This document shows, piece by piece, positions 4,037 through 51,510 of a stretch of 51,557 nucleotides of DNA. The notes under the pieces were generated by a model, which was given only the letters and a program-made list of their open reading frames with translations, did not search any database and was not told the DNA's origin. The stretch covers positions 1 through 51,557 of the IMG/VR virus record IMGVR_UViG_3300032225_001565. One strand, given 5' to 3'. Source of the stretch: a virus. Lineage: Duplodnaviria; Caudoviricetes. Positions within the stretch are counted from its first letter, which is position 1; each line of letters starts with the position of its first letter. The translations under genes and the position numbers were made by a program.

Positions 4037-4329
4037 AAATCGACACCGACAAGATGCTGACGATCAAGCAGGCCGCCGAGGCGATCGGCGCGCCGAATAA
4101 GAGGCCCGTCTATAGGGCGCTGAAGCGAGCCGCCGAGGCCGGGAAGGTGCTCTCGGTCGCAATCTTCGGAAAGACCCTGGTGCCGCAGGCCAACATCAAG
4201 GCGTTGCAGGAGTACTACTACCCCCACTACTCCGAGCAGCATCAGCGGATGGTCAAGAAGTGGGGCGCCGCCGGGGGCGCCGCCAGCGGCGTCACGAAGA
4301 GGGCTAGGAAGTCTCGTGCGCCGTCTTAG
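4033..4329 (+). CDS. Helix-turn-helix DNA-binding protein (excisionase/HTH_17-like)
   Basis: MLTIKQAAEAIG...VYRAL motif; ATGA overlap. Confidence 0.7.
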   Translation: MKIDTDKMLTIKQAAEAIGAPNKRPVYRALKRAAEAGKVLSVAIFGKTLVPQANIKALQEYYYPHYSEQHQRMVKKWGAAGGAASGVTKRARKSRAPS

Positions 4330-4600
4330 CCGAGTGGCACGACCGGCAGAGCACCTGAAGGCCACTCAGCGGCGTGGCCTCCGCGGACTGATCGACAGGC
4401 TTCCTTTCTCGGTGATCGACGTGGCAGTCGCCTGGGCGGTGCAGAACCAGCCCGCAAGCCTGGCAGGTCGCCGCGTCGCGGGCGATCACGGCCTGCCTGA
4501 CCCTCTGCCATGCAGCCGACCCGTACCCCCGTGCGTGGGAACTAGGGCGCCGGTCAGGAGGCCGGGGGACGCGGCGGAATGTTGGCTGCCTCCACGGCAT
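4304..4600 (-). CDS. HNH endonuclease (terminase-associated gp74 type)
   Basis: W-x-x-VR..RD..CQAC..VDH..LQVLCRSCHSAKT. Confidence 0.9.
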   Translation of the reverse strand: MPWRQPTFRRVPRPPDRRPSSHARGYGSAAWQRVRQAVIARDAATCQACGLVLHRPGDCHVDHRERKPVDQSAEATPLSGLQVLCRSCHSAKTAHETS

Positions 4601-13894: not shown

Positions 13895-14160
13895 CAGTCG
13901 AACTCCACCACGATTGCGACCTCGCTGCCGTCGCGGTTGATCTCCACCGACGTGGCAGACATATCCGCCAGGAGCGCCCACAGGTCTTCGTCGCTCATCG
14001 GGGCCATGCCCTCGACGAACCGGACGGCGACCTCGTGCGGCGATTCGCCGACAAGGATCGAAATGTCCGCGTCCGATGACCGGCATCGCGACCGGAGGAA
14101 CTCTTTGAGTTCGTAGATGCCGCCCTCGGCGGCGTGGACGGCGTCCAGCAGGAAGCTCAC
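13894..14160 (-). CDS. Hypothetical protein (88 aa)
   Basis: GTGA overlap with the csrA stop; GGAGG RBS. Confidence 0.65.
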   Translation of the reverse strand: MSFLLDAVHAAEGGIYELKEFLRSRCRSSDADISILVGESPHEVAVRFVEGMAPMSDEDLWALLADMSATSVEINRDGSEVAIVVEFD

Positions 14161-14327
14161 TTGGTCGCCTCCCGCGGCTTCTGGAGCAGTTCCTCGCGGG
14201 CGATCAGCACCTCGGGCGGCGCCTTGATGGCGAGCCGCACCTGGCCGTCGAACACCTTCGTGACCATGACCTCGATGTCGCGGCCGATCTGAACCTTCTG
14301 CCCGCGGCGGCGGGTGATGACCAGCAT
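14157..14327 (-). CDS. csrA: Carbon storage regulator CsrA/RsmA RNA-binding protein (56 aa; absent from the supplied ORF track)
   Basis: Manual translation MLVITRRRGQKVQIGRDIEVMVTKVFDGQVRLAIKAPPEVLIAREELLQKPREATK fits the CsrA consensus (MLxLTR..G..I.IG.DI.V.V....G.QV.L.I.AP..V.I.REE) with Arg44 retained. Confidence 0.95.
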   Translation of the reverse strand: MLVITRRRGQKVQIGRDIEVMVTKVFDGQVRLAIKAPPEVLIAREELLQKPREATK

Positions 14328-14328
14328 G

Positions 14329-14344
14329 GCTGACTCCTTTCAGC
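14329..14344 (-). promoter_or_regulatory. CsrA-type hairpin over the csrA RBS
   Basis: GCTGA-AAGGAG-TCAGC: 5-bp stem with ANGGAN hexaloop, 1 nt before the ATG. Confidence 0.7.
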
Positions 14345-14362
14345 GTTGTGTTTGGTGGTAGC

Positions 14363-14836
14363 CTATCCAGCCGCCTGGATTGAAGCAAGGTAGGTTTCGC
14401 AGGCTTTCTTGACCGCCGGCCGGGGGTGTTCCTTGGCCGCCCAGGTCAGGTAGGCCATGCCCCGGCTCGAGCGGGACACGACGCCCAGCGTCTGCCCGTC
14501 GAAGCGACCGCCGCGCAGCATGAAGTCGGCCCCCTCGGCCGGCGGCGCCAGGTGGCCCTTCACGACCGGCACCCACTGGCCTGTGCCGCAGAAGCAGCAC
14601 TCTAGCCGCCACTGCCCCCGATCCTCGTCGAGGATGTCGTGGCACTCGGCCCGACAGTTCTGGTCAAGGCAGGCCACAGTGCCATCCAGGCGACCGAGGG
14701 GCGGGTTGGCCTCCGCTGGCAACGCCAGCGGAGGAGTGTCATGGGCCTCTGACTGGGCTCCGGCCGACTCAGTCTTAGCCTTCCGGCCCCGTTTCTTGGT
14801 CGGTTCTTGTGGGGACGTGTCGAATAAAAGGCTCAC
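14363..14836 (-). CDS. Hypothetical protein with Zn finger and C-terminal G-x-F-x-G...YLxW motif
   Basis: C..C...CCFC; GGRFDGQTL..YLTWA. Confidence 0.7.
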   Translation of the reverse strand: MSLLFDTSPQEPTKKRGRKAKTESAGAQSEAHDTPPLALPAEANPPLGRLDGTVACLDQNCRAECHDILDEDRGQWRLECCFCGTGQWVPVVKGHLAPPAEGADFMLRGGRFDGQTLGVVSRSSRGMAYLTWAAKEHPRPAVKKACETYLASIQAAG

Positions 14837-19833: not shown

Positions 19834-20268
19834 TCAACGTGAGGTGACGTGCCGCAGAACCGGGCGAACGAACTCGCCCACCAAACCCTCGAACTCCGTC
19901 CCAGCCGAGTAGGGCTGGCGGGCATCCTTGCCCGCCGATTTCGCCCTCTCGGTCAACTCAGCTTTGAGCCGAGCCGTGTTCACCTGCGTGACCGCATCCA
20001 GCAGCCCCGCACGTCGGGCGGCCTCCATTACCGCCTCCTTTCGCGCCTCCGGCGCAGAGAACGAGTGACTCCACTCGATTCTCCAACTCCTCCCTGCGGC
20101 CTTGACTCCATCCAATCGGCCGTTCGTCATCTCCTTGATCGCGATGCCCTCGAGGTGAGCACGCTTTTCCTTGAGCGTGTCGATCTTGTCGTTCAACTCC
20201 TTGACCTGCGCGTCGATCTCGCTGATCTCAGCGAGTGCGCGTTGCAGCGTATCCGTCGATGATTGCAC
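19834..20268 (-). CDS. Coiled-coil hypothetical replication-module protein
   Basis: GTG start after AAGGAGG; N-terminal coiled coil, VN.A.LKA motif. Confidence 0.7.
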   Translation of the reverse strand: MQSSTDTLQRALAEISEIDAQVKELNDKIDTLKEKRAHLEGIAIKEMTNGRLDGVKAAGRSWRIEWSHSFSAPEARKEAVMEAARRAGLLDAVTQVNTARLKAELTERAKSAGKDARQPYSAGTEFEGLVGEFVRPVLRHVTSR

Positions 20269-22234: not shown

Positions 22235-22312
22235 TTGATTCTCGATTTGCAGTGGAGGATAGGGGATTCGTATCCTTCACCGCCATGACCCGCAAGAAAG
22301 GAGTCTTCACTC

Positions 22313-22540
22313 ATGGCTGGTACGGATTGTCGCCTCGGAAAAACCATTGTTCAAGTCAAACTCACCAAAGAGCAGGTCAAAGCCCTGTTTTCGGCGGTCA
22401 ACACCGCCGGCAGGCTTTCCGCCGGCCGGATATGCCGCCACGACCGCGAGCAGGAGTGCGCCCTTCTCGCCGCCATCGACGCGCTTGAGCAGGCCAGCGG
22501 CTTGTGTCAGGCCGACGCGGACGAGTGGCTGCTCGACTAG
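22313..22540 (+). CDS. Hypothetical protein (75 aa)
   Basis: AAGGAG RBS in hairpin AAGA-AAGGAG-TCTT. Confidence 0.6.
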   Translation: MAGTDCRLGKTIVQVKLTKEQVKALFSAVNTAGRLSAGRICRHDREQECALLAAIDALEQASGLCQADADEWLLD

Positions 22541-22651: not shown

Positions 22652-23500
22652 ATGACACTTGAGGAACTGCTTGACGGGTACTACGTCCCCCTCTGCGGGG
22701 TGTCTGCGCGAACGGAGAAACTCTACCGCTACACGATCCGCGCCTTCGGCGAGCACTTGGGCAGGACGGCGACGGTGGCCGATCTTGAGGAGTTGACGGT
22801 CGCGCGGTTCTTGTCGGCCAGGCTGCGTGATAAGGCCGTCGCCACGGCCGCGAAGGATGCCACGCAGTGCCGCGCTCTCTGGGGGTTCGCAGCCCGCCGT
22901 GGCCTCACCGCCCAGTGGCCGCAGATTCGCCGCATCCGCGTGCCGGAGCGGGTGCCGCAGGCGTGGCTGACCGACGAGTTGCAGCGTCTGCTCGACGCCG
23001 CCAGCCAGCGGGAGGGGACGATTGCCGGCGTGCCGGCCCGCCTCTGGTGGCGGTCGATGATCCTCGCGTGCTACGAGGTCGGCGAGCGGTGCGCGGCCAT
23101 GCTGGCCGTCGAGTGGCGGGACTTGTCGCCAGACGGCATCCACCTGCGCGCCGAGACGAGGAAGGGGGCGACCCGCGACCTCTGGCGGCCGATCTCGCCG
23201 GAGTGCTACGCCGCCATCCAGGCGACGAGGACGAGCCGGATTCTGGTGTGGGAGTGGGATCGCTGCTACACCAGCTTGTGGGGTCACCTGGGGAAGATTT
23301 GCAAGGCCGCCGGCCTGCCGAACGACCGCTGGAGCAAGTTCCACCGCATTCGGAAGACGCACGCCTCCTACGCCGCCGCCGCGGGCCTCGATGCCCAGCG
23401 GCTGCTTGATCACGCCTCGCCGAAGACGACCAGGGCGTACCTCGACCCCCGGATCGTGAAGCCGCCGTCGGCGCCAGATGTTCTGCCGAAGGTGGGATGA
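22652..23500 (+). CDS. int: Tyrosine recombinase/integrase
   Basis: Catalytic R (GER), K (TRKG), H-x-x-R (FHRIRK), H (LDHAS), Y (TRAYL); SAM-like core-binding N-terminus. Confidence 0.9.
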   Translation: MTLEELLDGYYVPLCGVSARTEKLYRYTIRAFGEHLGRTATVADLEELTVARFLSARLRDKAVATAAKDATQCRALWGFAARRGLTAQWPQIRRIRVPERVPQAWLTDELQRLLDAASQREGTIAGVPARLWWRSMILACYEVGERCAAMLAVEWRDLSPDGIHLRAETRKGATRDLWRPISPECYAAIQATRTSRILVWEWDRCYTSLWGHLGKICKAAGLPNDRWSKFHRIRKTHASYAAAAGLDAQRLLDHASPKTTRAYLDPRIVKPPSAPDVLPKVG

Positions 23501-24249: not shown

Positions 24250-24422
24250 GGCTTCACCTTCCGCGGCTTGCCGGGGTAGAGCGGCGTGATCGTGGAGGGC
24301 TGGCCGAGCCAGCGGCAGTATTGAGCTTCCTGCTCGGCCTCTCGCTTGAAGCGAAAAAATTCGCGGTGCTCTGCGTAGCCATTCTGCTGGAAGAGGTACG
24401 CGATCGGGCGGCGCTTCTTCAT
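24246..24422 (-). CDS. Hypothetical protein (58 aa; not in ORF track)
   Basis: MKKRRPIAYLFQ...KVKP, GTGA overlap with the downstream gene. Confidence 0.5.
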   Translation of the reverse strand: MKKRRPIAYLFQQNGYAEHREFFRFKREAEQEAQYCRWLGQPSTITPLYPGKPRKVKP

Positions 24423-24452
24423 GCCGGCTGCCTCGTTGTGTGGCAGAGTAGC

Positions 24453-24656
24453 CTACGAGATTGCCGCCTGACCGTCAACAAGCCGCAGTTTTGCCAGTTC
24501 TGCCGTCAACCGCTCGATCTCGTCGGCCGCCTGGACGAGTGCCTCGCGTTGCTGCCTCTGCGTCCGCTCGGCGTGGGCGAGCCGGTCGGCCAGGTCTGTC
24601 CCCATGTGATAGGAGGCCAGGAGCCGCAGGTGGTTGGTGAGTTCAAGGCCGGTCAT
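24453..24656 (-). CDS. Hypothetical protein (AADEIERL motif)
   Basis: Common small phage protein motif. Confidence 0.6.
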   Translation of the reverse strand: MTGLELTNHLRLLASYHMGTDLADRLAHAERTQRQQREALVQAADEIERLTAELAKLRLVDGQAAIS

Positions 24657-40159: not shown

Positions 40160-40492
40160 TCAGGCGAGCCGGAACGTCGCCGAGCCTCGGACGAAGTCGC
40201 CAACGCTGCCGCCGATCGAGGCGTTCGAGACGGTCGCGTTGCCACTGAAGGAAAACGGGCCGCTGATCGCCAGTGCGCCGGACGCGCCGGCCGTGAGGAT
40301 CGTGGTCGAGATGTAGTCGATCTGCACTTCGCGGTTGGTGGCAAAACCGCCGACGAACTCCCGCTTGCCGTTGGCCGGGATGCCGAGGTGGGTCGCGTCG
40401 AGGAGGTCTTGCGAGTCATTGACTTGAACGCTCGTGACAGTGACGCCCGAGCCGCCGAACGTGAACGTAAGTCCCTGTGCCGACGTTGCCAT
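40160..40492 (-). CDS. Tail tube (major tail)-like protein, paralog 1
   Basis: Follows the tail terminator; D.THL motif; strong RBS. Confidence 0.72.
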   Translation of the reverse strand: MATSAQGLTFTFGGSGVTVTSVQVNDSQDLLDATHLGIPANGKREFVGGFATNREVQIDYISTTILTAGASGALAISGPFSFSGNATVSNASIGGSVGDFVRGSATFRLA

Positions 40493-40531
40493 CTGGTTGC
40501 GCCTCCTTGCGCCGTTGTCCCAACTAGTCGG

Positions 40532-43646: not shown

Positions 43647-43846
43647 TGGCCTTTCCTCTTCTTGACGGGCTGATTCACAACGGCTCGCTCAACGTCGGCG
43701 TCTGGGGCCACCGCCCGCTCGATGGCCTTCTCCTCGGCCGGCTCGACCATGCCGCGGGCGATCATCACGCGGGCCATGCCGTCGCCCCAGTCGAAGACCT
43801 GGCCGATGCGGTAGCCGTTGAACGCCTTGGTGACGCGAATCTTCAC
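43643..43846 (-). CDS. Small head-associated protein (67 aa)
   Basis: GTGA/ATGA overlaps; G.V.D....A..MI.RG..E and basic tail. Confidence 0.7.
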   Translation of the reverse strand: MKIRVTKAFNGYRIGQVFDWGDGMARVMIARGMVEPAEEKAIERAVAPDADVERAVVNQPVKKRKGQ

Positions 43847-44571
43847 TTGATGAACCCCCAGGCGCCCTCGGGCGGCGTGCGGTCGCTGTTCCAGAATTCG
43901 GTGCAGTGCTGCTGAACCTTCCCGCCGGAAGCCTCGCGGCTGGGCCAGGTGATCATCAGTTCGGCGTGGCCGACGCTGATCTGGGTGGCGATGCCCAGCT
44001 TGTTGCCGGCGGCGTGAAACGCCTTCCACATATGGATGTCCTCGTCAATGTGGCCGCCGCGGTAGTCGCCGCGCTCGCTGGCCTCGGCGATGAACCACGG
44101 CTTCGGCGTCTTCCGCAGGGCTTCAGTGCGGATGAATGTGCAGCCGAAGTGGGCCGTCTCGACCAGTTGGACGGGCTTCTGGAACCAGTCATTCTCCACG
44201 GTCGTCTTGTCCTCCGGCTTGACGCCGGGGAGGGCGAACATGACCGTGTTTGCCTCCCGCTTGGTCTGGAGCGGGGCGATGGCATCGACGCCGCTGAACA
44301 TCATCAGCGTCAGGAGGGCTTCGACAGTCTTGGCAGTGAAGACCGTGTCGTAGTCGAACGTGAGGATCACGTCGTGCTTATCAAGCACGTCTTCCATGCA
44401 GTTCTGGAGGCACTGACCCCAGAATGCGCCGGTGTACTTGATCGGCGAGATGCGATGCGGCGCAAGAGCCTGGGCGACGCAGAAGAAGTTATCAGTGAAG
44501 CCGAGGCGGGGGCAGCTCATCAGAGCCGCCACCTTGACCTCGGCCTCACAGTCGCCGACGCGGACGAGCAT
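43843..44571 (-). CDS. GT-A fold (GT2-like) glycosyltransferase inside the head operon
   Basis: D.ILTFDYD (DxD), HFGCTFIR..AL, PWF, EDI..W, G.K......VGH. Confidence 0.78.
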   Translation of the reverse strand: MLVRVGDCEAEVKVAALMSCPRLGFTDNFFCVAQALAPHRISPIKYTGAFWGQCLQNCMEDVLDKHDVILTFDYDTVFTAKTVEALLTLMMFSGVDAIAPLQTKREANTVMFALPGVKPEDKTTVENDWFQKPVQLVETAHFGCTFIRTEALRKTPKPWFIAEASERGDYRGGHIDEDIHMWKAFHAAGNKLGIATQISVGHAELMITWPSREASGGKVQQHCTEFWNSDRTPPEGAWGFIK

Positions 44572-44653
44572 TTGTGTCGCTCCTATTGGTTAGGAGCGGG
44601 CGCGCTTCCTTGCGCCTTTGCCGGCCGTCTTGGCCGTCCCGCTTGTTTCGGGA
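44572..44653 (-). promoter_or_regulatory. Four-hairpin leader with a CsrA-type loop and an RBS-sequestering stem
   Basis: TCCCG..CGGGA, CGGCC..GGCCG, GCGC-AAGGAA-GCGC, CGCTCCTA-ACCAA-TAGGAGCG. Confidence 0.65.
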
Positions 44654-45097
44654 CTAGCCACGCACCAAGGTCAAGACGTTCGCGTCGCTTGCCGAGGCGG
44701 GCGAGATTTCGGCACGAGCGAGCCGGCCGGTGATCGCCACGGTGGCCGAGGCACCAGGGGTGTACGACACCTTGAGGTATCGCTTACGAACCCGCGTGTC
44801 CACGTCAAACTTCACGACCGCGACGGTGCTCGTTCCGGCCACGCTGATGGCGGGGACTGTGAAACCGCCGGTGCCACCAGCAACCAGCGAAGTGACGTTG
44901 GCGTAGGACGAGTTGTCGTCCGACTCCTCAATCTTGAGCACGTTTGAGAACGTGGTCGAGGCGTTGCTGGAACGCAGCACCATCAGCGAGCAGTAGTCGT
45001 ATCCGATCGTATCGATGGTCAGCGTGGCCGTAGCCGTCGATCCGACGGCGGCGGTCGGAAGCTCGGCGACAACGCGATGGTTCTGTGTGTGAATCAT
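44654..45097 (-). CDS. Capsid decoration/cement-like protein
   Basis: Directly after the capsid gene; ID..GYD, EESDD, KRYLKV. Confidence 0.7.
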   Translation of the reverse strand: MIHTQNHRVVAELPTAAVGSTATATLTIDTIGYDYCSLMVLRSSNASTTFSNVLKIEESDDNSSYANVTSLVAGGTGGFTVPAISVAGTSTVAVVKFDVDTRVRKRYLKVSYTPGASATVAITGRLARAEISPASASDANVLTLVRG

Positions 45098-45125
45098 GTT
45101 GATTCGTGCTCCTGTTTAGTGATGA

Positions 45126-46460
45126 TTAGGCCGTCTTGAGAGCGACAACGGGGCCGACCTCGGAGGTGCTGCCGAGCGAGTGGTGGTTCACATCGAACCG
45201 CATCGTGCCCTGGAGCAGAAGCTGGTCAGTCGTGGCGTACACCTGATCGAACAGCCGCACCGAGAAGTCACGGCGACGGGCGTAGATGCTGGAGAGGGCC
45301 ATGTTGCCGAACAGCACCTTGATCTTGCCGCTGTCGGTGCCGAGGGTGCTGTTCATCACATGCACCATTCGCACCGGGTAGCCGAGGAAGGACTCGCCCG
45401 CAGCGCCGCCGACGTTCTCGACGGTGTTCCCGCCTGCCGCGTACTTGAGGCGGGCGATGCTCGAGGCATAGCCGGCAGGAGAGACGTACCAGGCCGCACC
45501 TTGGCGGGCATAGATCGGCAACTTGCCCATCACGTTCAGGAAGTCTTCGATGTCCAGCGTCTCGAAGCCGACGTTGCCAGCCAGAGCCGTCACGACCGAG
45601 GCCGTGTAGGCCGAGCCGCCGATCTTGTTGACGATGCCGTTGATCCCGCCGTAATCGGAAGTCCCGTCTCCGAGCCACCCACACTGGTCAATCTTGAGGG
45701 CCAGCGAGGTGCTGAACTCTTGAGCACAGGCGTCTGCCAGAGACACCACGCCAACGGTGTCATCGACCACCTCGCTGCTCATCCGGCAGCCCACGGCGAG
45801 CTTCTTCGCCACCAGGCTGACGTTGCCGTAGGTCGGCTCGCTCTCGGTCACGCTCGACCCCTCGCCGACGAAGTATGCCGTCGTTCCGGTGAGACGCTTG
45901 GGGATCACCATCGTGTCGCGGCTCATCGACACGTTCTCGGCCGCGCCGGGGAAGGTGCCGTAGGTTTCGACCAGCCGGATCACGCGGTTGGCGAACTCCT
46001 CCGGCACCAGAGCGCCGCCGGCGGTGTTCGTCCCTTCGTTCAGGGCGCGGGCCTCGACACCGTGCTCGCGGCACCAGCGAAGGTCGTTCTCGTTCCTGAA
46101 CACGGTGGCCTTGATCCACCGGCCGCAGCGGTAGGCGCTCTCGACGGCGTCGGGGCCGTCGTTGAACGCGCGGAGGGTCGTGTGGTGCGGGTTGATGGCC
46201 CGAATCTCGACCTTCTTCGTCTCCTCGACGGCCGGGGCCGGGGCCGGGGCGGCCTTCTCGACCACCGCACGGAGTTCCTGCTCCTTGGCGGCGAGACGGC
46301 CCTCGAACTCGAGGTCGGCCTTGACCGTGTCGGCCTCGTCGGAGAGCTTGCGGAGTTCCGCGGTCTGCTCCTCCGAACGCTCGGCCACGTCGGCCAGTTC
46401 GGTCATCCGAGCGGCGACGGCCGCGGCACGATCCTGAAGTCGCTTGAGGTTCGATGGCAT
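45126..46460 (-). CDS. Major capsid protein (HK97 fold, with delta domain)
   Basis: N-terminal coiled coil, GG.LVPEE, VGEG, KL....S.E, G.G, LGYPV, FGN. Confidence 0.95.
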   Translation of the reverse strand: MPSNLKRLQDRAAAVAARMTELADVAERSEEQTAELRKLSDEADTVKADLEFEGRLAAKEQELRAVVEKAAPAPAPAVEETKKVEIRAINPHHTTLRAFNDGPDAVESAYRCGRWIKATVFRNENDLRWCREHGVEARALNEGTNTAGGALVPEEFANRVIRLVETYGTFPGAAENVSMSRDTMVIPKRLTGTTAYFVGEGSSVTESEPTYGNVSLVAKKLAVGCRMSSEVVDDTVGVVSLADACAQEFSTSLALKIDQCGWLGDGTSDYGGINGIVNKIGGSAYTASVVTALAGNVGFETLDIEDFLNVMGKLPIYARQGAAWYVSPAGYASSIARLKYAAGGNTVENVGGAAGESFLGYPVRMVHVMNSTLGTDSGKIKVLFGNMALSSIYARRRDFSVRLFDQVYATTDQLLLQGTMRFDVNHHSLGSTSEVGPVVALKTA

Positions 46461-46633
46461 CTTGGCCTTGCTCCTGTTTGAGCCGGCCAAAACGCAAAAG
46501 CGCCGGCCGGCGGGTGTTTCCCGCTAGCGCGCCGCTGACGTGAATCCTCACGTCGCTCGTGCTGTCCCTCGCGATGTCCGTCGCGAGGCTTGTATCTACT
46601 TGTAGTGTAGGGGGGCGACTACTTGCCGTGCAA
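46461..46633 (-). promoter_or_regulatory. Capsid promoter and structured GGA-loop leader
   Basis: TTGCAC(46628-33)-N18-TACACT(46604-09); hairpins CCTCGCGA-CGGACA-TCGCGAGG and GACGTGA-GGAT-TCACGTC; SD CAGGAG. Confidence 0.6.
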
Positions 46634-47938
46634 GGGAGTCGAGAGCAGCGCGGCCTTTAGCCTCGCCATCTTTCCAACGAAGTCGGTCGTGTCAGCGCTC
46701 ACCTTGACGATGATGGCTGGCGCCTCTTCGATGTCGCGTTCCTCGTCAATCACCGGTAGGTCGCGAGCGCCGTCCATCTCCTTGACCTTGCGGGCCGACC
46801 AGTTCTTGGCCGCGGTTCCGCCCCAAAGAAGGTGCGCTACGAACCCCGGAGTCTCAGCGCCGGGCTTGTCCCAGCCCGGCCTCTGATCAGCGGCGTGCCT
46901 GGCAAACCAGGCATTCATCTCGCGAATCCAGTCCTCGTTCATCTCCTCGCGGCGCGCCAGGCGGTTGGCGCGAGCGACCGTCTCCGGCTTGAGGCCGTCG
47001 CCGCTCTTGCCGTCCTCGTGGAGTTTCAGGCCGCGGCGGGCCGCCGAGGCCATGCCGGCCGTCGGCTTCATGGAAACGGCCCGCTCGTCGCTGTCGATGA
47101 AAGCAGTCACCTCGCCGACGATGCCGCTGGCCGCCACCAACTCGCTCATGTTCTTGCCGACGAACTCGTCCGTTTCATGCCAATAGCCATCTTCATGCTT
47201 GTACTTCTTCACAAGCACTGCCGGGTCGTCGGGCGACGCCATGATCGGCTCCTGGCTGTACTCGCCCAACTGGCCCTCGGCCATGACGTGCTCGATGCGC
47301 CCAACGCCGTCATCCCACGCCACAAAGTCGCCTGGCGCGTACATCACGGCCGCCTCGCGAACCTCCGAAGCAACTTCAGCCACAACGATATCCGCTCGCT
47401 GCTCATCGTTCTGGGCCATCTCCAGGGCGCGTTTGCTGACGTAAGTCTCGGTGGCAAGGTAGGCCGGGGTATCGACGGGGCCGGCGTCGCCGAGGAACGA
47501 GAACTTCTTGATCCGGCGGATCATCCGGCCGTTGGCGTCGCGCTGCCATGCTTCGTCCGCGGGGCGGCTGCGGAACGCGAAGCTGCTGCCGCGAACATCG
47601 CCTCTTTCGATGAGTTCGACGACCGCGGCGGCCGATCGGGGAGGGTCGATCTCGTACCGCAGGCCGCGCTCGTCCACCATCAGCCGCATCGTGCCGCTGG
47701 AGGTTCGGCCGATCACCTGGGTGTGGTTGTACTTTCCGAACACGTCGGGGTTTGAGGCCATGACCTCGTCGAAGGCGCCGCGCTCCACGATCTCGTAGAA
47801 CCCGCCGAGGTCTTGGCTCTCCGACTCAAAGACGGCCGCATAGCCGCGGATGACGGTGCGGCCGTTCTCGTCGGCCTTGACCTCAAGGCCGGGCTGCTCG
47901 GCGATCAGCCGTCGTTCAAGTTCGCACGTTCCGTCCAT
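46619..47938 (-). CDS. HK97-family prohead protease with C-terminal extension domains
   Basis: I.GYAAVF.S.S.DLGGF.E....GAF, NH, GRT, GL.Y, RGD..GSSFAF, V..PAY..T; GAGGAGG RBS. Confidence 0.92.
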   Translation of the reverse strand: MDGTCELERRLIAEQPGLEVKADENGRTVIRGYAAVFESESQDLGGFYEIVERGAFDEVMASNPDVFGKYNHTQVIGRTSSGTMRLMVDERGLRYEIDPPRSAAAVVELIERGDVRGSSFAFRSRPADEAWQRDANGRMIRRIKKFSFLGDAGPVDTPAYLATETYVSKRALEMAQNDEQRADIVVAEVASEVREAAVMYAPGDFVAWDDGVGRIEHVMAEGQLGEYSQEPIMASPDDPAVLVKKYKHEDGYWHETDEFVGKNMSELVAASGIVGEVTAFIDSDERAVSMKPTAGMASAARRGLKLHEDGKSGDGLKPETVARANRLARREEMNEDWIREMNAWFARHAADQRPGWDKPGAETPGFVAHLLWGGTAAKNWSARKVKEMDGARDLPVIDEERDIEEAPAIIVKVSADTTDFVGKMARLKAALLSTPLHGK

Positions 47939-49515
47939 GCTTTCGTCGCCTCCTCGTAGGGCTTGCCAGACCGATGGCAGTCCAGCAGTCGATCCCGCGT
48001 GCTCTCCATCCACTCAGTCACGAATGTGTCGATGTCGCGGCCAGTCGCCTTGGCGGCGTCGCAGAGTTCCGTCTTCATCCGCTGCTCGTGGGCCTCGAGC
48101 CACGCCTGCAACTTGGCCGGCTTGTTGCGGCGCTCCAGAATGCCGTCGGCCTCGATCGCAGCGAGCCGCCGCAGGGTGGTGCGGAAGAGCGTCTCGGATG
48201 CGCCGCTGACGGCGGCGTCAGCGGGTGCCGGCCCGTGGTTGCCGTCAGTGGCTGCGGCGACAGGAGGCGTGTCGCCGGTCGGCGGCGGCGCTTGCTGGCC
48301 GTTCGGAGCACCAACGGTGAACGCATCCAGCAACTGCATATTCACCTGTAGGAATCTCTTATTGCCAAGACCGTCGGGCAGTGGGTTGTAGCCGATCTGC
48401 GCGCGAATCTCGTCAACCGAAAGCGCGCCCATGTTGAATGCCTCCCGCATGAACTGCGCGCGGGCCGCAAAGTCGCCGGCCATGAGCGCAGTCGTGTCGA
48501 ACTCAACGAAATAGTCGCGGTCGTCTGTGATCAAGTCGCGACGAACGGCGAACTGCCAGCGGCGATTGTGCGGGTACAGTCCAAAAGTGACGAAGTCGAT
48601 TGCGGCCTGCTCAACCGTGCTGTGCCGCACGTTCGTCAGTTCGCCAAGCATGTGCAGCGGAACGCGGTAGGCGCGGGCGATCTCCTCAACGCTGTAGCGC
48701 CTGGTGTCGATCAGCGCGCTGTGCTGATTGTTGACGGGATCGCTCTTTTTGTGGAAGCCGTGCGGCATGACCACCGTTTTGAATGCTCGGTCTGGGCCGC
48801 GGTGGGCGGAATCCCACTGCTCCTTGAACCGCTGGATCGCCTCGGGCTTGAAAGGCTGATCCGTCTCGATGTAGGTGCCGCTCTGCGCGCCGTTGCCGAA
48901 GAACGACGAAGAATAAAGTTCTGTCGCCCGCGCCAGCGCAATCGCATCATGCGCCAGGGTTGTTGGAACGTATCCTGTGACTGCGTCTGAACTGAGCCAA
49001 CGCAGGTGAAAAATCTGATCCTGGCGGTAGATCGTAGGCGTCGGGGCGCCGTCTTCTCGGTATTGGTACTGGAGCCGTCCATTCTCAAGCCGCTTGACTT
49101 GCATGCGCGAGGCGTGCAGTGGGATGAGTTGATCGACGCTGCCGCGGCGGCCCGGCTTGATCAGCGAGAAGCCGTTGCCCCAGAGCAGCATTTGGCTCTG
49201 CATCCACTCACGCCACTCGAACGATGTCATCCAGTCGTTCGGCTGGTATGCCAGCACCTCTTGGAGCGGGTGATCCTCGGCGATTTCCTTGCCGCCGCCG
49301 GGGATGCGGCGGTAGAGGTTGAACGGCATCGCGGCGATGCTCTCGGACAACACCCTGACGCACGCGAGAACGGCCGAGCAGCGGAGGCTCGACTCCGGCG
49401 AGATGTAGACGCCGGCGGCCCCCTTGCGGCTCTCGACGATCTCCTCAAAGACTCGCGAGAGGCTGGTTCGCATCTCGTACAGGTCGCCGGCGTCCGCGTA
49501 TTGCGTTTCAGACAC
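47905..49515 (-). CDS. Portal protein, HK97 family
   Basis: AV.ACV..LSE.IA.MP, PN.WMT..E, GN, IFHLR, EIAR.YRVP.HM. Confidence 0.95.
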   Translation of the reverse strand: MSETQYADAGDLYEMRTSLSRVFEEIVESRKGAAGVYISPESSLRCSAVLACVRVLSESIAAMPFNLYRRIPGGGKEIAEDHPLQEVLAYQPNDWMTSFEWREWMQSQMLLWGNGFSLIKPGRRGSVDQLIPLHASRMQVKRLENGRLQYQYREDGAPTPTIYRQDQIFHLRWLSSDAVTGYVPTTLAHDAIALARATELYSSSFFGNGAQSGTYIETDQPFKPEAIQRFKEQWDSAHRGPDRAFKTVVMPHGFHKKSDPVNNQHSALIDTRRYSVEEIARAYRVPLHMLGELTNVRHSTVEQAAIDFVTFGLYPHNRRWQFAVRRDLITDDRDYFVEFDTTALMAGDFAARAQFMREAFNMGALSVDEIRAQIGYNPLPDGLGNKRFLQVNMQLLDAFTVGAPNGQQAPPPTGDTPPVAAATDGNHGPAPADAAVSGASETLFRTTLRRLAAIEADGILERRNKPAKLQAWLEAHEQRMKTELCDAAKATGRDIDTFVTEWMESTRDRLLDCHRSGKPYEEATKAWTERANLNDG

Positions 49516-51035
49516 TAAAACACCACCAGTTGCGGGTCTTCGTCGATTCCTTTGACCTCGGCACTCGCGAGGCCCAATGCCATGATCAAGGCTACTGCCG
49601 AGTCGATCCTGCTTGTCGAGTTCGAGTTGCTCTTCGTGGGCTTGATGTTCCCCGCGTCGTCCTGCCGCACCTGAAGGTTGCTCATGTGCAGCAGGAGCGG
49701 AGGGTTGCCGCCGTGCCGCAACTTCTGGCTGATTGCGAGGGTCTGCAAAAACTTGGTGGCCGGAGACATTGAGGCGTACCCCTGTCCATACGGCTTCACA
49801 TCGACGCCCTCGTTCACCAACTGGGTCGTAATGTGCGTCGCATTCCAGCGGTCAATTGCGACGCCGCGGACGACGTTCTCCTCGCAAAAAGAGAGAACGT
49901 AGTCGCGAACAACGTCGTAATCCGTAATGTCTCCTTCAGTTATTGTACAAAACCCATCCTTGGCCCATTGGCGATAGGGGGCTTCGGTGCGGTCGATGTT
50001 CTTCTCTGGGATGAAGAGGTGCGTCGTCGCGTCGTAAGTGCCGTCGGGGCTGCCGTGCTCGTCCAGGCCAGGCCAGACCGCGGCGAACGCCGTCGTGTCC
50101 TGCGTGCTCGAGAGGTCGATGCCGCAGTAGCAGGGGCGATCCGCTGGTGGCCGCAGCGGCTGGCCGCACGCCTCGAACTGCCCCGTCCTGAAGAACTTGT
50201 TGGCCCCGTTGGAGCACCACTGGTTCAGGTAGAGGGTGCGGAACTTCAGTTCCTGGGCGACGGACTCGCGGGCCAGGGCGGCCTCACGCTCCATGAACTC
50301 CTTGCGGACGGTGATCAGGTAGTTCGGATTCGCCTTGGCCCAGGTGGTTTCCGCGAAGATGTCATCCTCTGAATCGGCCGCGAAGATGCAGGGCAGGAAG
50401 GTGGGGTCGTCGATCAGGCCGTCGCGCACCTTGATGGCCCGCTGCCACTCCTCGTAGCAAGGCCCGACGCGATCCATGCCGGCCGTGGTTACATAGATGA
50501 CGAGCGGCTCGGCTCGCATGCCCATGCCGCTCTCGAGCACGTCGATCAAATCCCGGTTGGGCTGGACGTGAAATTCGTCCACGATGACCACGCTGGGGTT
50601 GAAGCCGTGTTTGCCCTTGTGCTCGCTAGAAAGGAACTGGATCGTGCTCTTCTTGTGCGGTATTACTATCGAGTTCTTGTATATCTTGCACCGCTTGAGC
50701 AGGCCGGGGCAGGACTCGATGAAACGCGAGCACGCCGTGAACAGGAGGCTGGCCTGCTTGCGGTCGCCGGCGGCGATGAGAATCTGGCCGCCCTCGTCGC
50801 CAAAGAACCCCTCGTAGGCGCCGACCAGGGCGCAGGTGGCCGTTTTCCCGGCCTTCCGCGGCACGGCGAGCAGGCTCCGCTGATACTGCCGGCGGCCGTC
50901 TGGCCGGAGGGTGTTGAAGAGGCGGTCGAGGTACTCGTCCTGCCAGGGCTGTAGCTCGAACGGCTTACCAGCAAACTCGCCCTCGCTGTGTTTTAGTAGC
51001 GCGGCGAACTGGCGGATATCAACCTGACGTGCCAT
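49515..51035 (-). CDS. terL: Terminase large subunit
   Basis: L.PWQ, PRKAGKT (Walker A), VIVDEFH (Walker B), TTAG, GIDLS..D, D.WN, RID..VA. Confidence 0.97.
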   Translation of the reverse strand: MARQVDIRQFAALLKHSEGEFAGKPFELQPWQDEYLDRLFNTLRPDGRRQYQRSLLAVPRKAGKTATCALVGAYEGFFGDEGGQILIAAGDRKQASLLFTACSRFIESCPGLLKRCKIYKNSIVIPHKKSTIQFLSSEHKGKHGFNPSVVIVDEFHVQPNRDLIDVLESGMGMRAEPLVIYVTTAGMDRVGPCYEEWQRAIKVRDGLIDDPTFLPCIFAADSEDDIFAETTWAKANPNYLITVRKEFMEREAALARESVAQELKFRTLYLNQWCSNGANKFFRTGQFEACGQPLRPPADRPCYCGIDLSSTQDTTAFAAVWPGLDEHGSPDGTYDATTHLFIPEKNIDRTEAPYRQWAKDGFCTITEGDITDYDVVRDYVLSFCEENVVRGVAIDRWNATHITTQLVNEGVDVKPYGQGYASMSPATKFLQTLAISQKLRHGGNPPLLLHMSNLQVRQDDAGNIKPTKSNSNSTSRIDSAVALIMALGLASAEVKGIDEDPQLVVF

Positions 51036-51510
51036 CGAAGAGGGCATCCACGGGGTCGGCGACCACCTTGACCGCGCCGTACCCAAGTCGGGTGCGATCG
51101 GCGGGGGTCAGGCCCAGCACCGTCTCGAGGTGCCGGAGTTGCTCGCCCGTGTCCTTGGCCTGGGCGGCCATCGCGGTCGGCCGCGAGAATCGCAGCGTCC
51201 CATCTGGCCCCAGAATCTCCTTGTAGAGACAATTGACCTGCTGAAGCTGCTGGACGGAATACTCCCAGGCAACGTAGGTCGTGCAGTAGCGCGTGATGAC
51301 GTGCTCGTCGGTTTCGGCGAGCGTACCCATCCGCTCGAGCCAGCCAACGACCCGCACAAACACCTCTTTCGCCCGTGTTTTCAGCCACTCCGGCGGCTGC
51401 ATGGCCTCGGCAGGCTTCGTCCCCAGTTCCTCGCGGTTGTTGGCGTGCTTGGAGCCAACGAGTTGGAGGACGTGCTTCGGCTTTGGAGGTCGGCCCTTCA
51501 TGCCCGCCAT
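51019..51510 (-). CDS. terS: Terminase small subunit (P27 family)
   Basis: GRPPKP, PPEWL...AK, D......YC, LGLTP..R. Confidence 0.92.
   Translation of the reverse strand: MAGMKGRPPKPKHVLQLVGSKHANNREELGTKPAEAMQPPEWLKTRAKEVFVRVVGWLERMGTLAETDEHVITRYCTTYVAWEYSVQQLQQVNCLYKEILGPDGTLRFSRPTAMAAQAKDTGEQLRHLETVLGLTPADRTRLGYGAVKVVADPVDALFDGTSG

Follow-up and report, generated by a model that had tools for sequence, protein, structure and literature searches.

The locus studied here raises the question of what a long folded leader ahead of a phage capsid gene does, and whether a protein acts on it. The window, i.e., the whole 51,557-nt stretch of DNA that was analysed, is a 91%-complete temperate phage with 64% G+C, whose uncultured hosts probably belong to the Planctomycetota. 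The capsid leader, approximately 135–143 nt in length, is located on the minus strand ahead of the HK97-type capsid ATG (46460), in positions 46461-46633. The genes and signals at this place are the following:

45126-46460, minus strand: Phage_capsid protein gene (major capsid protein, HK97 type, 444 aa; PF05065, E 3e-29)
46619-48013, minus strand: S78 prohead protease gene, upstream of the capsid leader (stop at 46621-46619)
46604-46633, minus strand: promoter-like element (−35 TTGCAC 46633-46628, 18-nt spacer, −10 TACACT 46609-46604)
46475-46471, minus strand: leader SD AGGAG, the SD of the capsid gene

The promoter words, hairpins, SD, and ATG listed in an earlier, sequence-only reading of this DNA are all in place on the minus strand, and the distance between the promoter-like words and the capsid ATG, put there at about 140 nt, measures approximately 143 nt. 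The −35 word TTGCAC overlaps the last protease codons and is invariant in 51/51 aligned leaders, also where the protease ORF stops before it. In addition, the −10 word has an invariant TA and stands at a conserved distance from the −35 word; it is on this comparative ground that the element can be regarded as a putative promoter. As for its earlier description as sigma70-like, the words and their spacing are indeed conserved, but a scan of positions 45000-48200 with the E. coli consensus found 0 sites, and TTGCAC equals TTGACA of that consensus at 3/6 positions. A related −10-like word, TAGGCTAC, has 6 copies in the window versus 0.21 expected, and a similar TTGnnn-N17-TAGGCT precedes csrA in relatives. 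The conserved position of the element agrees with the earlier suggestion that transcription begins upstream of the hairpins, the start itself being predicted; a dedicated capsid transcript would start from this promoter, which overlaps the last part of the protease gene. The TTGCA:UGCGG pairing proposed by RNAalifold was rejected because it shows no covariation and lies within the promoter.

The 186-nt stretch that was folded has a minimum free energy (MFE) of −85.4 kcal/mol, compared with −62.1 ± 4.1 kcal/mol in 200 dinucleotide shuffles (z −5.65), none of which was as good; the folding into consecutive hairpins described earlier is thus confirmed. The comparison drew on relatives of the capsid gene in IMG/VR (146 exist, 80 were kept). 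It gave an alignment of 50 unique leaders and the window, of which 38 are distinct after trimming; the sources are uncultured phages. In the 38 distinct leaders, 92.5–94% of the base-pair cells are paired versus 34.5–47.6% in slid controls, and the covariation score was reached by 0/500 shuffles. The leader is therefore structured, conserved, and covarying. Its helices are:

46567-46588, minus strand: hairpin 1 (HP1), 8-bp stem 46588-46581/46574-46567, loop CGGACA, GGA at 46579-46577
46526-46563, minus strand: P2 and hairpin 2 (HP2), with the P2 basal helix at 46563-46558/46531-46526
46554-46548/46543-46537, minus strand: HP2 stem, 7 bp, loop GGAU, GGA at 46547-46545
46524-46510, minus strand: HP3, GCGGG-AAACA-CCCGC, within the P3ext region 46502-46533
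46482-46511, minus strand: P4, GCCGGCC 46511-46505 paired with GGCCGGC 46488-46482
46457-46495, minus strand: start-site (TIR) hairpin, 46495-46485 paired with 46467-46457, AUG included

HP1 is located approximately 9 nt past the point where transcription is predicted to start. Its stems (8–10 bp, −11 to −17 kcal/mol) show changes on both sides in 7/8 pairs, with 94.1% of cells paired, while the apical GGA is kept in 37/38 distinct leaders over 21 stem/loop variants. P2 and HP2 together have 90.1% of cells paired and double changes in 5/15 pairs. The HP2 loop contains GGA in 32/38 leaders and UGAU in one, and its apical part is deleted in five; HP2 is evidently dispensable, being lost or devoid of GGA in 6/38. 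The earlier reading had made itself depend on the conservation of the GGA loops, and these counts uphold it. The bases around GGA in HP1 and HP2 vary (A, C, G, or U before; U, C, or A after), and HP1 does not retain the A that the ANGGAN form has two bases before GGA; since the flanking bases vary, only GGA is under selection. A third GGA, within the capsid SD, is present in 38/38 distinct leaders, 73 nt from that of HP2.

Drifting stems combined with fixed GGA loops would be the signature of CsrA-family operator sites. Sites bridged by a CsrA dimer are spaced by 10–63 nt; the GGA triplets of HP1 and HP2 are 32 nt apart and are therefore suited to one dimer. According to the available part of PMC7652899, GGA is the invariant core of CsrA sites, a rule that its retention among varying bases here fits; in addition, one dimer can bridge two sites, and most SELEX ligands have no more than 4 pairs, stable stems possibly disfavouring binding. 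In the MFE fold of the leader, GGA is displayed in the loops of both HP1 and HP2, and a CsrA-family protein is encoded in the same system (66 bits). The 8–10-bp stem of HP1 exceeds the short stems of the SELEX ligands, whereas the hairpins with stems of 5 bp (at the csrA SD) and 4 bp (the GCGC hairpins) described below fit them. We consider the chances evenly balanced that this leader serves the capsid mRNA as an operator of the CsrA type. Against this reading stand the stable HP1 stem, the variable base two positions before its GGA, the dispensability of HP2, the distance of the SD GGA from HP2 and its position in the closed fold, the negative consensus promoter scan, and, as given below, the lack of a genome-wide excess of GGA-loop hairpins and the ordinary stability of the small SD hairpins. 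The multi-site CsrA target suggested earlier is a well-supported hypothesis, because the GGA loops are conserved and CsrA occurs in the phage, its relatives, and the putative host bin. Given a conserved GGA-displaying leader and a phage-encoded CsrA gene, RNA-level control of capsid production by the phage is probable.

The phage csrA gene is located 32 kb from the capsid gene and has a leader of its own:

14157-14327, minus strand: csrA, 56 aa, in the replication/early module (PF02599 at 66–67 bits, cut-off 27)
14329-14388, minus strand: csrA promoter-like element and SD hairpin (TTGCTT-N17-TAGGCT at 14388-14360)
14344-14329, minus strand: csrA SD hairpin GCUGA-AAGGAG-UCAGC, 1 nt before the csrA ATG

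The protein belongs to phrog_9500 (‘CsrA-like regulator’) and can be aligned over its entire length with solved CsrA/RsmE chains, the Arg44-Glu-Glu segment being kept. In the csrA SD hairpin, double changes affect 4/5 pairs, and the paired cells amount to 92% versus 8–44% in slid controls; the loop reads AAGGA(G/C/U) in 10/10 distinct sequences, and AAGGAG fits the ANGGAN form. It is an apparent autoregulatory hairpin. The csrA gene was found in 8/15 related records, namely in 8/8 that are at least 75% complete and in 0/7 that are at most 73% complete; this co-occurrence is inseparable from shared ancestry, with no csrA-free complete relative for contrast. Five of the fifteen gave 0/5, which is uninformative because they are 30–53% complete fragments. 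The putative Planctomycetaceae host bin contains four CsrA-family matches.

The part of the leader next to the capsid gene can adopt two folds. P3ext is an extended HP3 that also uses the P2 3′ strand and the P4 5′ arm; it belongs to the MFE fold, and across the 38 sequences 98.2% of the cells of its 12 pairs are paired. P2 and P3ext exclude each other, and each is conserved. P4, the helix chosen by RNAalifold, is paired in 38/38 leaders (100%), with one pair changed from G-C to A-U in eight sequences, and is mutually exclusive with the TIR hairpin. The latter is also part of the MFE fold, and its inner GCUC/GAGC stem holds half of the SD AGGAG, the SD GGA being paired or at a loop–stem junction in the predicted closed fold. 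The TIR core is 91.7% paired, with 3/8 pairs doubly changed in a sequence-only alignment. Among 30 types of TIR arms, cognate pairs have a mean energy of −18.25 kcal/mol versus −15.14 kcal/mol for non-cognate ones, and the gain is large in divergent lineages (e.g., −24.4 versus −15.6). The leader can be described as a cis-regulatory RNA motif that is absent from the catalogues and whose two alternative folds are both conserved. The enclosure of the SD and AUG in a conserved hairpin with a competing helix was absent from the earlier reading.

As the best-supported features are structural, the leader may be a protein-independent element, in which HP1 stabilises the 5′ end and capsid translation is tuned by a start switch (P4 versus TIR) of kinetic or bistable nature; the GGA loops would then have a non-CsrA role, e.g., as SD-like standby sites for the 30S subunit or as sites of another RNA-binding protein. 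We regard this explanation as possible, though on the unlikely side. It is consistent with the covariation of the TIR hairpin, with the retention of both alternative folds at 96–100%, and with an advantage in stability of 5.6 ± 5.4 kcal/mol for the closed fold, the helices of the open one being the first to be transcribed; the SDs of this phage also have GGA as their core, and the HP1 stems are longer than in typical CsrA ligands. However, a stabiliser needs no fixed loop, and GGA is the only invariant triplet of HP1, in which almost all other positions vary. Several lineages offer only these 3 nt to the anti-SD, too few for 30S docking, and a conserved UCC that could pair with them is absent from the leader. 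The presence of csrA with a canonical SD hairpin in the lineage also speaks against a purely structural role.

Under the CsrA-operator reading, the 5′ end of the transcript would form a first module, HP1 and HP2, whose stems drift and whose apical loops show GGA with the exceptions given above (1/38 and 6/38). The likeliest ligand would be the 56-aa CsrA from the early/replication module, and host CsrA may bind too. The second module would be bistable: its more stable fold (P3ext and the TIR hairpin) is predicted to have the SD and AUG paired, whereas in the alternative fold (P2 and P4) an upstream decoy arm would hold the anti-start strand and leave the start site open. We infer the transcription start, the binding of CsrA, and the direction of control; CsrA at HP1/HP2 would set the fate of the capsid mRNA. 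We lean towards repression, in which CsrA would keep translation down until late transcripts outnumber it, either because it bridges to the GGA of the SD or because it favours the closed fold. A positive effect similar to that in flhDC or ymdA, through protection of the 5′ end or opening of the start hairpin, seems nearly as likely.

Similar hairpins are found at other late genes of the phage:

44572-44653, minus strand: second late leader, preceding gene 43843-44571 (z −4.63)
44615-44602, minus strand: hairpin GCGC-AAGGAA-GCGC in the second late leader
40499-40512, minus strand: SD hairpin of gene 40160-40492, GCGC-AAGGAG-GCGC, 6 nt ahead of the ATG

The motif of the GCGC hairpin in the second late leader occurs in 57/66 related loci; downstream of this hairpin, the SD is enclosed in a CGCUCCU/AGGAGCG hairpin. 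The 40499-40512 hairpin is identical in the window and in 5/5 related genomes, with different flanks; its stem is invariant and hence gives no test of covariation. The window contains five AAGGAN hexaloop hairpins versus 1.3 ± 1.1 in shuffles (2/200 shuffles reach five), including these two conserved ones. Genome-wide, GGA-loop hairpins with stems of at least 6 bp are not enriched (49 versus 41 ± 7 in shuffles), and GGA hexaloops give a weak signal (23 versus 15.6 ± 4.6). The conservation of GGA-loop hairpins is beyond chance, whereas their mere presence is not. The small SD hairpins are thermodynamically ordinary (z −0.5, −0.1, and +0.07), and a search for GCGCAAGGANGCGC with up to two mismatches gave 6 matches versus 6.5 expected, so that only the two exact copies count. 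PHROGs and Pfam assigned no function to the genes behind these hairpins. A candidate sponge with three GGA hairpins at 19926-20227 was dropped because this stretch is coding.

The earlier reading had offered a CsrB/RsmZ-like sponge as the alternative to a CsrA target, and the data do not support it. The number of GGA triplets per leader is 4.26 on average (range 3–6) versus 3.13 expected from composition, the RNA enters the capsid ORF, and the terminator of its own that a sponge sRNA would have was not found, none being called on the minus strand. A terminator-like call at HP1 was rejected because it concerns the plus strand, which has no gene end there. The Rfam scan suggested earlier left the leader without a match to any family: in positions 46000-47100 at E ≤ 10, no match overlaps 46461-46633, the five listed matches (46785-47077) all being far below gathering scores, and the whole window has 0 families at gathering score.

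The leader might still function mainly as a sink, the late capsid transcript or a terminated 5′ fragment titrating CsrA off other mRNAs, which we consider improbable. HP1 and HP2 are at least 73 nt from the capsid SD, and therefore action in cis is not required; GGA hairpins at or near the SD, which titration could relieve, are present in three other places (csrA, gene 40160-40492, and the 43843-44571 leader); and in the window subtype a U-rich run, UUUUGCGUUUU, follows P3ext and could end a short RNA. However, this run is not conserved, as the ACAUUCGCG and ACCUUCGCGAUU subtypes indicate, and the terminator scan gives nothing on the minus strand. The GGA density is near background, while CsrB has approximately 18 sites (PMC7652899, available part), and Rfam gives no CsrB/Rsm match. 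The elaborate start-site module also argues for control in cis.

The same U-run would be the terminator, together with P3ext, and P2 the anti-terminator if the leader were an attenuator or antitermination cassette of the lambda PR′-tR′ or put-like type. The order of elements in the window subtype (a promoter, two hairpins, a GC-rich compound stem, and then the run) and the mutual exclusion of the conserved P2 and P3ext fit this scheme. Nevertheless, it appears very improbable: a GC-rich stem with a conserved U-tract is not found, most subtypes having no U-tract; the promoter is within the structural operon rather than at its head; and the GGA loops and the AUG-pairing helix would be left without a role.

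The CsrA-operator reading can be extended to a self-contained Csr circuit, which we put forward tentatively and think rather unlikely in its entirety. An early, autoregulated phage CsrA would restrain the translation of virion mRNAs through GGA-hairpin operators in three places: the capsid leader, the SD of gene 40160-40492, and the leader preceding gene 43843-44571. With two strong 5′ sites and its own promoter, the first of these would be both target and sink and would titrate CsrA during the surge of late transcription; its bistable start-site module would turn this titration into a sharp on-switch of the capsid. If true, such a circuit would be a molecular-titration timer for virion assembly made from a borrowed bacterial regulator.

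Beyond the phage lineage, a scan of 596 Gb of genomes with a leader-core pattern, whose gap setting excluded the one true genome locus, gave 47 matches in unrelated high-G+C taxa; these were judged to be chance because none has neighbouring leader features or a capsid start. In Bcep22-like phages, an independent lineage, csrA is located directly upstream of the capsid gene, and the 95-nt spacer between them is structured (z −5.13), with a GGA hairpin able to pair alternatively with the start region. The csrA neighbourhood of PTXU04 was of no help, csrA not being near the capsid gene.

Phage csrA genes have been catalogued for years, and the literature found on them, in the available parts of PMC9144972, PMC11879866, and PMC7366521, names no RNA target. 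The window supplies a defined candidate target that is conserved and covarying and belongs to the capsid mRNA of the phage itself, together with an apparent csrA autoregulatory hairpin and two further late-gene hairpins. The reason why phages carry CsrA thereby becomes testable at the bench with a 56-aa protein and a 140-nt RNA.

When the leader is compared with known systems, the sponges CsrB, CsrC, and RsmX-Y-Z share with it loop-displayed GGA behind an own promoter; the leader differs in having two conserved loop sites, a near-background GGA content, no Rfam match, and an RNA that enters an ORF. A closer likeness is seen in CsrA/RsmE leaders (E. coli glgC, RsmE ANGGAN hexaloops; PMC7652899, available part), where GGA in upstream hairpin loops is combined with a GGA at the SD, the spacing of two upstream sites suits one dimer, and a CsrA-family protein is present. 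Here, in contrast, the gene encodes a virion protein, the protein is phage-encoded, the sites are candidates, HP1 has 8–10 bp, and the SD site is in a strong hairpin, 73 nt from the nearest upstream site.

According to the same part of PMC7652899, RsmA stabilises an SD:anti-SD hairpin in P. aeruginosa psl, and CsrA opens an SD-sequestering hairpin in E. coli ymdA. Both combine such a hairpin with GGA sites, as the capsid leader does, and by analogy a protein bound to the GGA sites could tip the leader fold either way. Unlike in psl and ymdA, the sequestering hairpin here competes with the conserved decoy P4, and the GGA hairpins form a separate 5′ module. In the leader of E. coli flhDC, two 5′-proximal CsrA sites give protection against RNase E (PMC7652899, available part); the capsid leader is long and likewise has two GGA sites within approximately 55 nt of the predicted 5′ end.

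As for phage-borne csrA, the accessible parts of the respective papers report it in 30/2517 phage genomes (PMC7366521), as gp47 of the Bcep22-like Burkholderia phage JC1, where it adjoins the capsid gene and is termed a moron (PMC9144972), and as gp28 of E. coli phage PTXU04, whose knock-down leads to small plaques (PMC11879866). Common to these phages and the one studied here is a small CsrA homologue in a tailed phage, tied to the capsid gene in Bcep22. In contrast to the Bcep22, PTXU04, and survey cases, csrA is located here in the replication module, 32 kb away, and a candidate target on the capsid mRNA is defined.

All the elements that the sequence-only reading had named in the leader of the capsid gene, which is the RNA stretch between a promoter-like element and the capsid ATG, were found in place on the minus strand:

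46633-46628, minus strand, -35 element TTGCAC, followed by an 18-nt spacer
46609-46604, minus strand, -10 element TACACT
46588-46567, minus strand, hairpin HP1, 8 bp with a CGGACA loop
46554-46537, minus strand, hairpin HP2, 7 bp with a GGAU loop
46524-46510, minus strand, hairpin GCGGG-AAACA-CCCGC
46511-46505 and 46488-46482, minus strand, GCCGGCC pairing with GGCCGGC (helix P4)
46475-46471, minus strand, Shine-Dalgarno sequence (SD) AGGAG
46460, minus strand, capsid ATG

The leader region folds with -85.4 kcal/mol, compared with -62.1 ± 4.1 in shuffled sequences (z -5.65). No Rfam family overlaps the leader in a search of 46000-47100 with E up to 10, where the five weak matches all lie outside it, at 46785-47077; a scan of the whole window returned no family at the gathering score.

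The window is one IMG/VR virus record of 51,557 bases with a completeness estimate of 91% and a G+C content of 64%. The head and tail genes listed were assigned by Pfam:

49515-51086, minus strand, large terminase
47905-49515, minus strand, portal
46619-48013, minus strand, S78 prohead protease, 464 aa
45126-46460, minus strand, HK97-type major capsid protein
minus strand, connector, head-completion, tail-completion and tape-measure-chaperone genes
22652-23500, plus strand, integrase

Further genes encode an SNF2 helicase, a primase-polymerase and a DNA methylase and, together with the integrase, indicate a temperate phage. The prohead protease is unusually long; its S78 domain covers residues 43-200, and the extra C-terminal region matches a PHROG of unknown function. 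In the capsid protein, the Pfam domain starts at residue 148, behind an N-terminal extension of about 100-150 residues; an in-frame TTG at 46490, upstream of the capsid ATG, is not conserved as a start. HNH endonucleases are the usual partners of HK97-type terminases, and the location of such a gene (4304-4600, minus strand) close to the left end suggests that the record was cut near the packaging site. The closest genome match of the capsid protein (79% identity) is located on a 9.9-kb contig in a Planctomycetaceae metagenome bin (locus L003), which is the only clue to the possible host.

Of the 146 relatives of the capsid protein in IMG/VR, the best 80, with 69-92% identity, were kept. Loci with an upstream stretch shorter than about 200 nt, ten in all, were left out (L020, L031, L055, L071, L072, L074, L076, L077, L079 and L080). 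The remaining loci and L003 gave 50 unique 215-nt leaders, which were aligned with the window (alignment A1); trimming to the transcribed part yielded 38 distinct sequences, aligned as A2. Three structures were supplied by hand and counted on A2, which is a sequence-only alignment. They include P2, the basal helix under HP2, a third hairpin (HP3) in its short or extended form (P3ext), and a start-site hairpin that pairs the SD/AUG region of the capsid gene.

Table. Pairing of the three leader structures in alignment A2 (structure; cells paired; cells paired in slid controls)
HP1 + P2/HP2 + HP3 + start-site hairpin; 92.5%; 34.5-44.5%
HP1 + P2/HP2 + short HP3 + P4; 94.0%; 35.3-46.7%
HP1 + HP2 + extended P3 + start-site hairpin; 93.0%; 35.5-47.6%

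For all three structures, none of the 500 shuffles attains the covariation score seen in the alignment, or its count of doubly changed cells, with the caveat that kinship alone can let unstructured sequences outscore shuffles. Stronger evidence comes from the slid controls and from the large number of different HP1 stems. Changes on both sides were found in A2 in 7 of 8 pairs of HP1, 5 of 15 pairs of P2/HP2 and 3 of 8 pairs of the start-site core. P4 is 100% paired in 38 of 38 sequences; one of its G-C pairs is replaced by A-U in eight of them, possibly through a single evolutionary event. The extended P3 is 98.2% paired and shows little variation.

When the HP1 and HP2 segments of the 38 leaders were folded one by one, HP1 occurred in 21 distinct stem/loop versions, all of them hairpins of 8-10 bp. 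The GGA loops are conserved, contrary to the outcome that was to refute the sequence-only proposal: GGA is present in the apical loop of HP1 in 37 of the 38 leaders (the exception, L061, has GGUUU), and the HP2 loop is GGA(U/C) in 32 and UGAU in one (L068), the apical part of HP2 being lost in five (L019, L062, L064, L069 and L082). GGA can be preceded by any of the four bases and is followed by U, C or A. With its stem and the flanking bases varying, the hairpin drifts freely, and GGA alone among its triplets is fixed. GGA recurs in the HP1 loop, at the paired 3' base of HP1 (33/38), in the HP2 loop, at the HP3 junction (19/38) and in the SD (38/38). The mean number of GGA per leader is 4.26 (range 3-6) versus 3.13 from composition, which does not bear out the CsrB/RsmZ-like sponge that had been suggested as well.

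In the MFE fold of the window, 46495-46485 pairs with 46467-46457, the AUG included, and GCUC pairs with the GAGC of the SD. Over 30 distinct arm combinations, cognate duplexes have a mean of -18.25 kcal/mol and non-cognate ones -15.14. The gains are large in divergent lineages with both arms rewritten:

L062, cognate -24.4, non-cognate -15.6
L068, cognate -23.1, non-cognate -15.8
L073, cognate -16.9, non-cognate -11.7
L075, cognate -17.2, non-cognate -10.9

In some rows, the cognate pair is not favoured (L024 ranks 24 of 30, and L066 22 of 30). The start-site hairpin and P4 cannot both form fully, because the 5' strand of the former overlaps the 3' arm of the latter; in the same way, the extended P3 takes up one strand of P2 (the 3' one) and one arm of P4 (the 5' one). 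Forced P4 is costlier than forced start-site pairing by 5.6 ± 5.4 kcal/mol on average (n = 38), and the start region is paired in the MFE of 10 of 11 individually viewed folds, while L075 favours P4. Both alternative helix sets are retained at 96-100%, which would explain the near invariance of the shared strands. We read these competing conserved helices as a two-state module at the start region. The closed fold would consist of P3ext and the start hairpin, and the open fold of P2 and P4, the parts transcribed first; a partial pseudoknot is possible.

A scan of 45000-48200 with the E. coli consensus called zero promoters. The same scan gave two terminator-like calls, as many as expected from shuffles (2.0 ± 1.3); the plus strand carries both, including the one at HP1. 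All 51 of 51 leaders of A1 have TTGCAC, even in lineages whose protease ORF ends upstream of it, so that coding does not account for its conservation. The spacer length of 18 nt is retained (17 in L068), the TA of the -10 element is invariant, and in many relatives this element is TAGGCT, followed by AC. The sequence TAGGCTAC occurs six times in the window (3430, 14358, 20423, 24448, 27382 and 29606) versus 0.21 expected, and none of 100 shuffles reaches six. Several copies are followed by a start codon after 25-50 nt, and TTGACG precedes one of these copies by 17 nt; TAGGCTAC is probably the -10 region of promoters used by the phage. At 24399-24455 (minus strand), a well-formed TTGACG-N17-TAGGCT precedes a short leader with its ATG near 24399, suggesting that the crude ORF picking overlooked a gene on this strand beside the integrase region. 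TTGCnn-N16-19-TAnnCTAC has exactly two copies in the window, ahead of the capsid leader and of the phage csrA gene, versus 0.09 expected, although this count is post hoc, the csrA copy having been spotted before counting. The copy ahead of csrA is kept in relatives as TTGnnn-N17-TAGGCTAC, with a variable spacer sequence. The predicted promoter of the capsid leader is likely, with a transcript start near 46597; the hairpins would in any case be present in read-through RNA from the protease gene.

The csrA gene carries a hairpin at its own SD:

14157-14327, minus strand, csrA ORF, 56 aa
14344-14329, minus strand, SD hairpin GCUGA-AAGGAG-UCAGC, 1 nt ahead of the ATG

The PF02599 match (14178-14327) scores 66 bits against a cut-off of 27. 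Residues 1-51 align with solved CsrA/RsmE chains, and the RNA-contact residues, MLxxTRR at the N-terminus and Arg-Glu-Glu around position 44, are retained. The gene, 32 kb away from that of the capsid protein, has the primase-polymerase gene on one side and the methylase gene on the other; its stop codon overlaps a GTG of the next ORF. It was detected in 8 of the 15 related viral records examined, namely all eight with a completeness of at least 75% (100, 100, 99, 91, 84, 84, 80 and 75%), and was not found in the seven with 73% or less; fragmentation would produce such absences, yet this is no proof of presence. In the Planctomycetaceae bin with L003, four CsrA-family matches make host CsrA a candidate ligand too.

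In ten distinct sequences of the csrA SD hairpin, from the window phage and its relatives, the loop is always AAGGA(G/C/U). Four of the five stem pairs show changes on both sides, and 92% of cells are paired versus 8-44% in slid controls. As the stability of this hairpin alone is unremarkable (z -0.5), the evidence for it is covariation. It shares the ANGGAN hexaloop on a short stem with RsmE complexes and most SELEX ligands (PMC7652899) and looks like a candidate autoregulatory operator.

Hairpins with an AAGGAN hexaloop and a stem of at least 4 bp number five in the window versus 1.3 ± 1.1 in shuffles, 2 of 200 of which reach five. Besides that of csrA, three precede genes:

44615-44602, minus strand, GCGC-AAGGAA-GCGC, in the leader (44572-44653) of late gene 43843-44571
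40512-40499, minus strand, SD hairpin GCGC-AAGGAG-GCGC, 6 nt ahead of late gene 40160-40492
22294-22307, plus strand, AAGGAG hexaloop SD hairpin before the small gene 22313-22540 beside the integrase

Downstream of the first, a CGCUCCU/AGGAGCG hairpin sequesters the SD of gene 43843-44571 (242 aa, without family); this leader folds with z -4.63, and the motif passes the filter in 57 of 66 related loci. The sequence of the second does not differ between the window and the related genomes (5 of 5), although its flanks do; its gene has tandem paralogues in relatives. The stems of both are invariant, so that their support is sequence conservation, not covariation. The third is not the MFE fold. 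The fifth hairpin (19936-19917) was rejected, as it lies within coding sequence. Pfam and PHROGs gave no function for the genes behind these hairpins.

Conserved GGA in covarying loops, the GGA of the SD, lineage-wide csrA and its canonical SD hairpin together resemble a CsrA-operator system. Several features speak against it: HP1 has a long stem, the A preceding GGA is not conserved, the SD site is buried and far away, and HP2 is dispensable. On balance, we put at about an even chance that CsrA, of the phage and perhaps of the host, binds HP1 and HP2 and controls the capsid mRNA in cis. We lean slightly towards repression, which would be overcome once late transcripts outnumber CsrA.

A full-text literature search found no paper naming an RNA target of a phage CsrA. 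Sobrero and Valverde reported csrA in 30 of 2517 phage genomes (PMC7366521). According to Adler et al., its role in the phage life cycle was previously untested, and its knock-down in PTXU04 leads to small plaques (PMC11879866). In Bcep22-like phages, csrA (gp47 of JC1) is directly upstream of the capsid gene (gp48) and was termed a moron (PMC9144972). In Burkholderia phage Bcep22, the CsrA-like gp54 is followed by a 95-nt spacer (L092, 5366-5460) and the major head gene. This spacer folds with z -5.13 and contains a CGCA-GGAUG-UGCG hairpin, whose GGAUGUGC can alternatively pair with GCACAUCC just ahead of the AUG; it is one anecdotal parallel to the capsid leader, not a test. In the mechanisms described for CsrA on other mRNAs, the protein may bridge from an anchoring hairpin to the SD (glgC), stabilise a hairpin of SD and anti-SD (psl), protect the 5' end (flhDC) or open a sequestering hairpin (ymdA) (PMC7652899), and the anatomy of the capsid leader could serve any of these modes.
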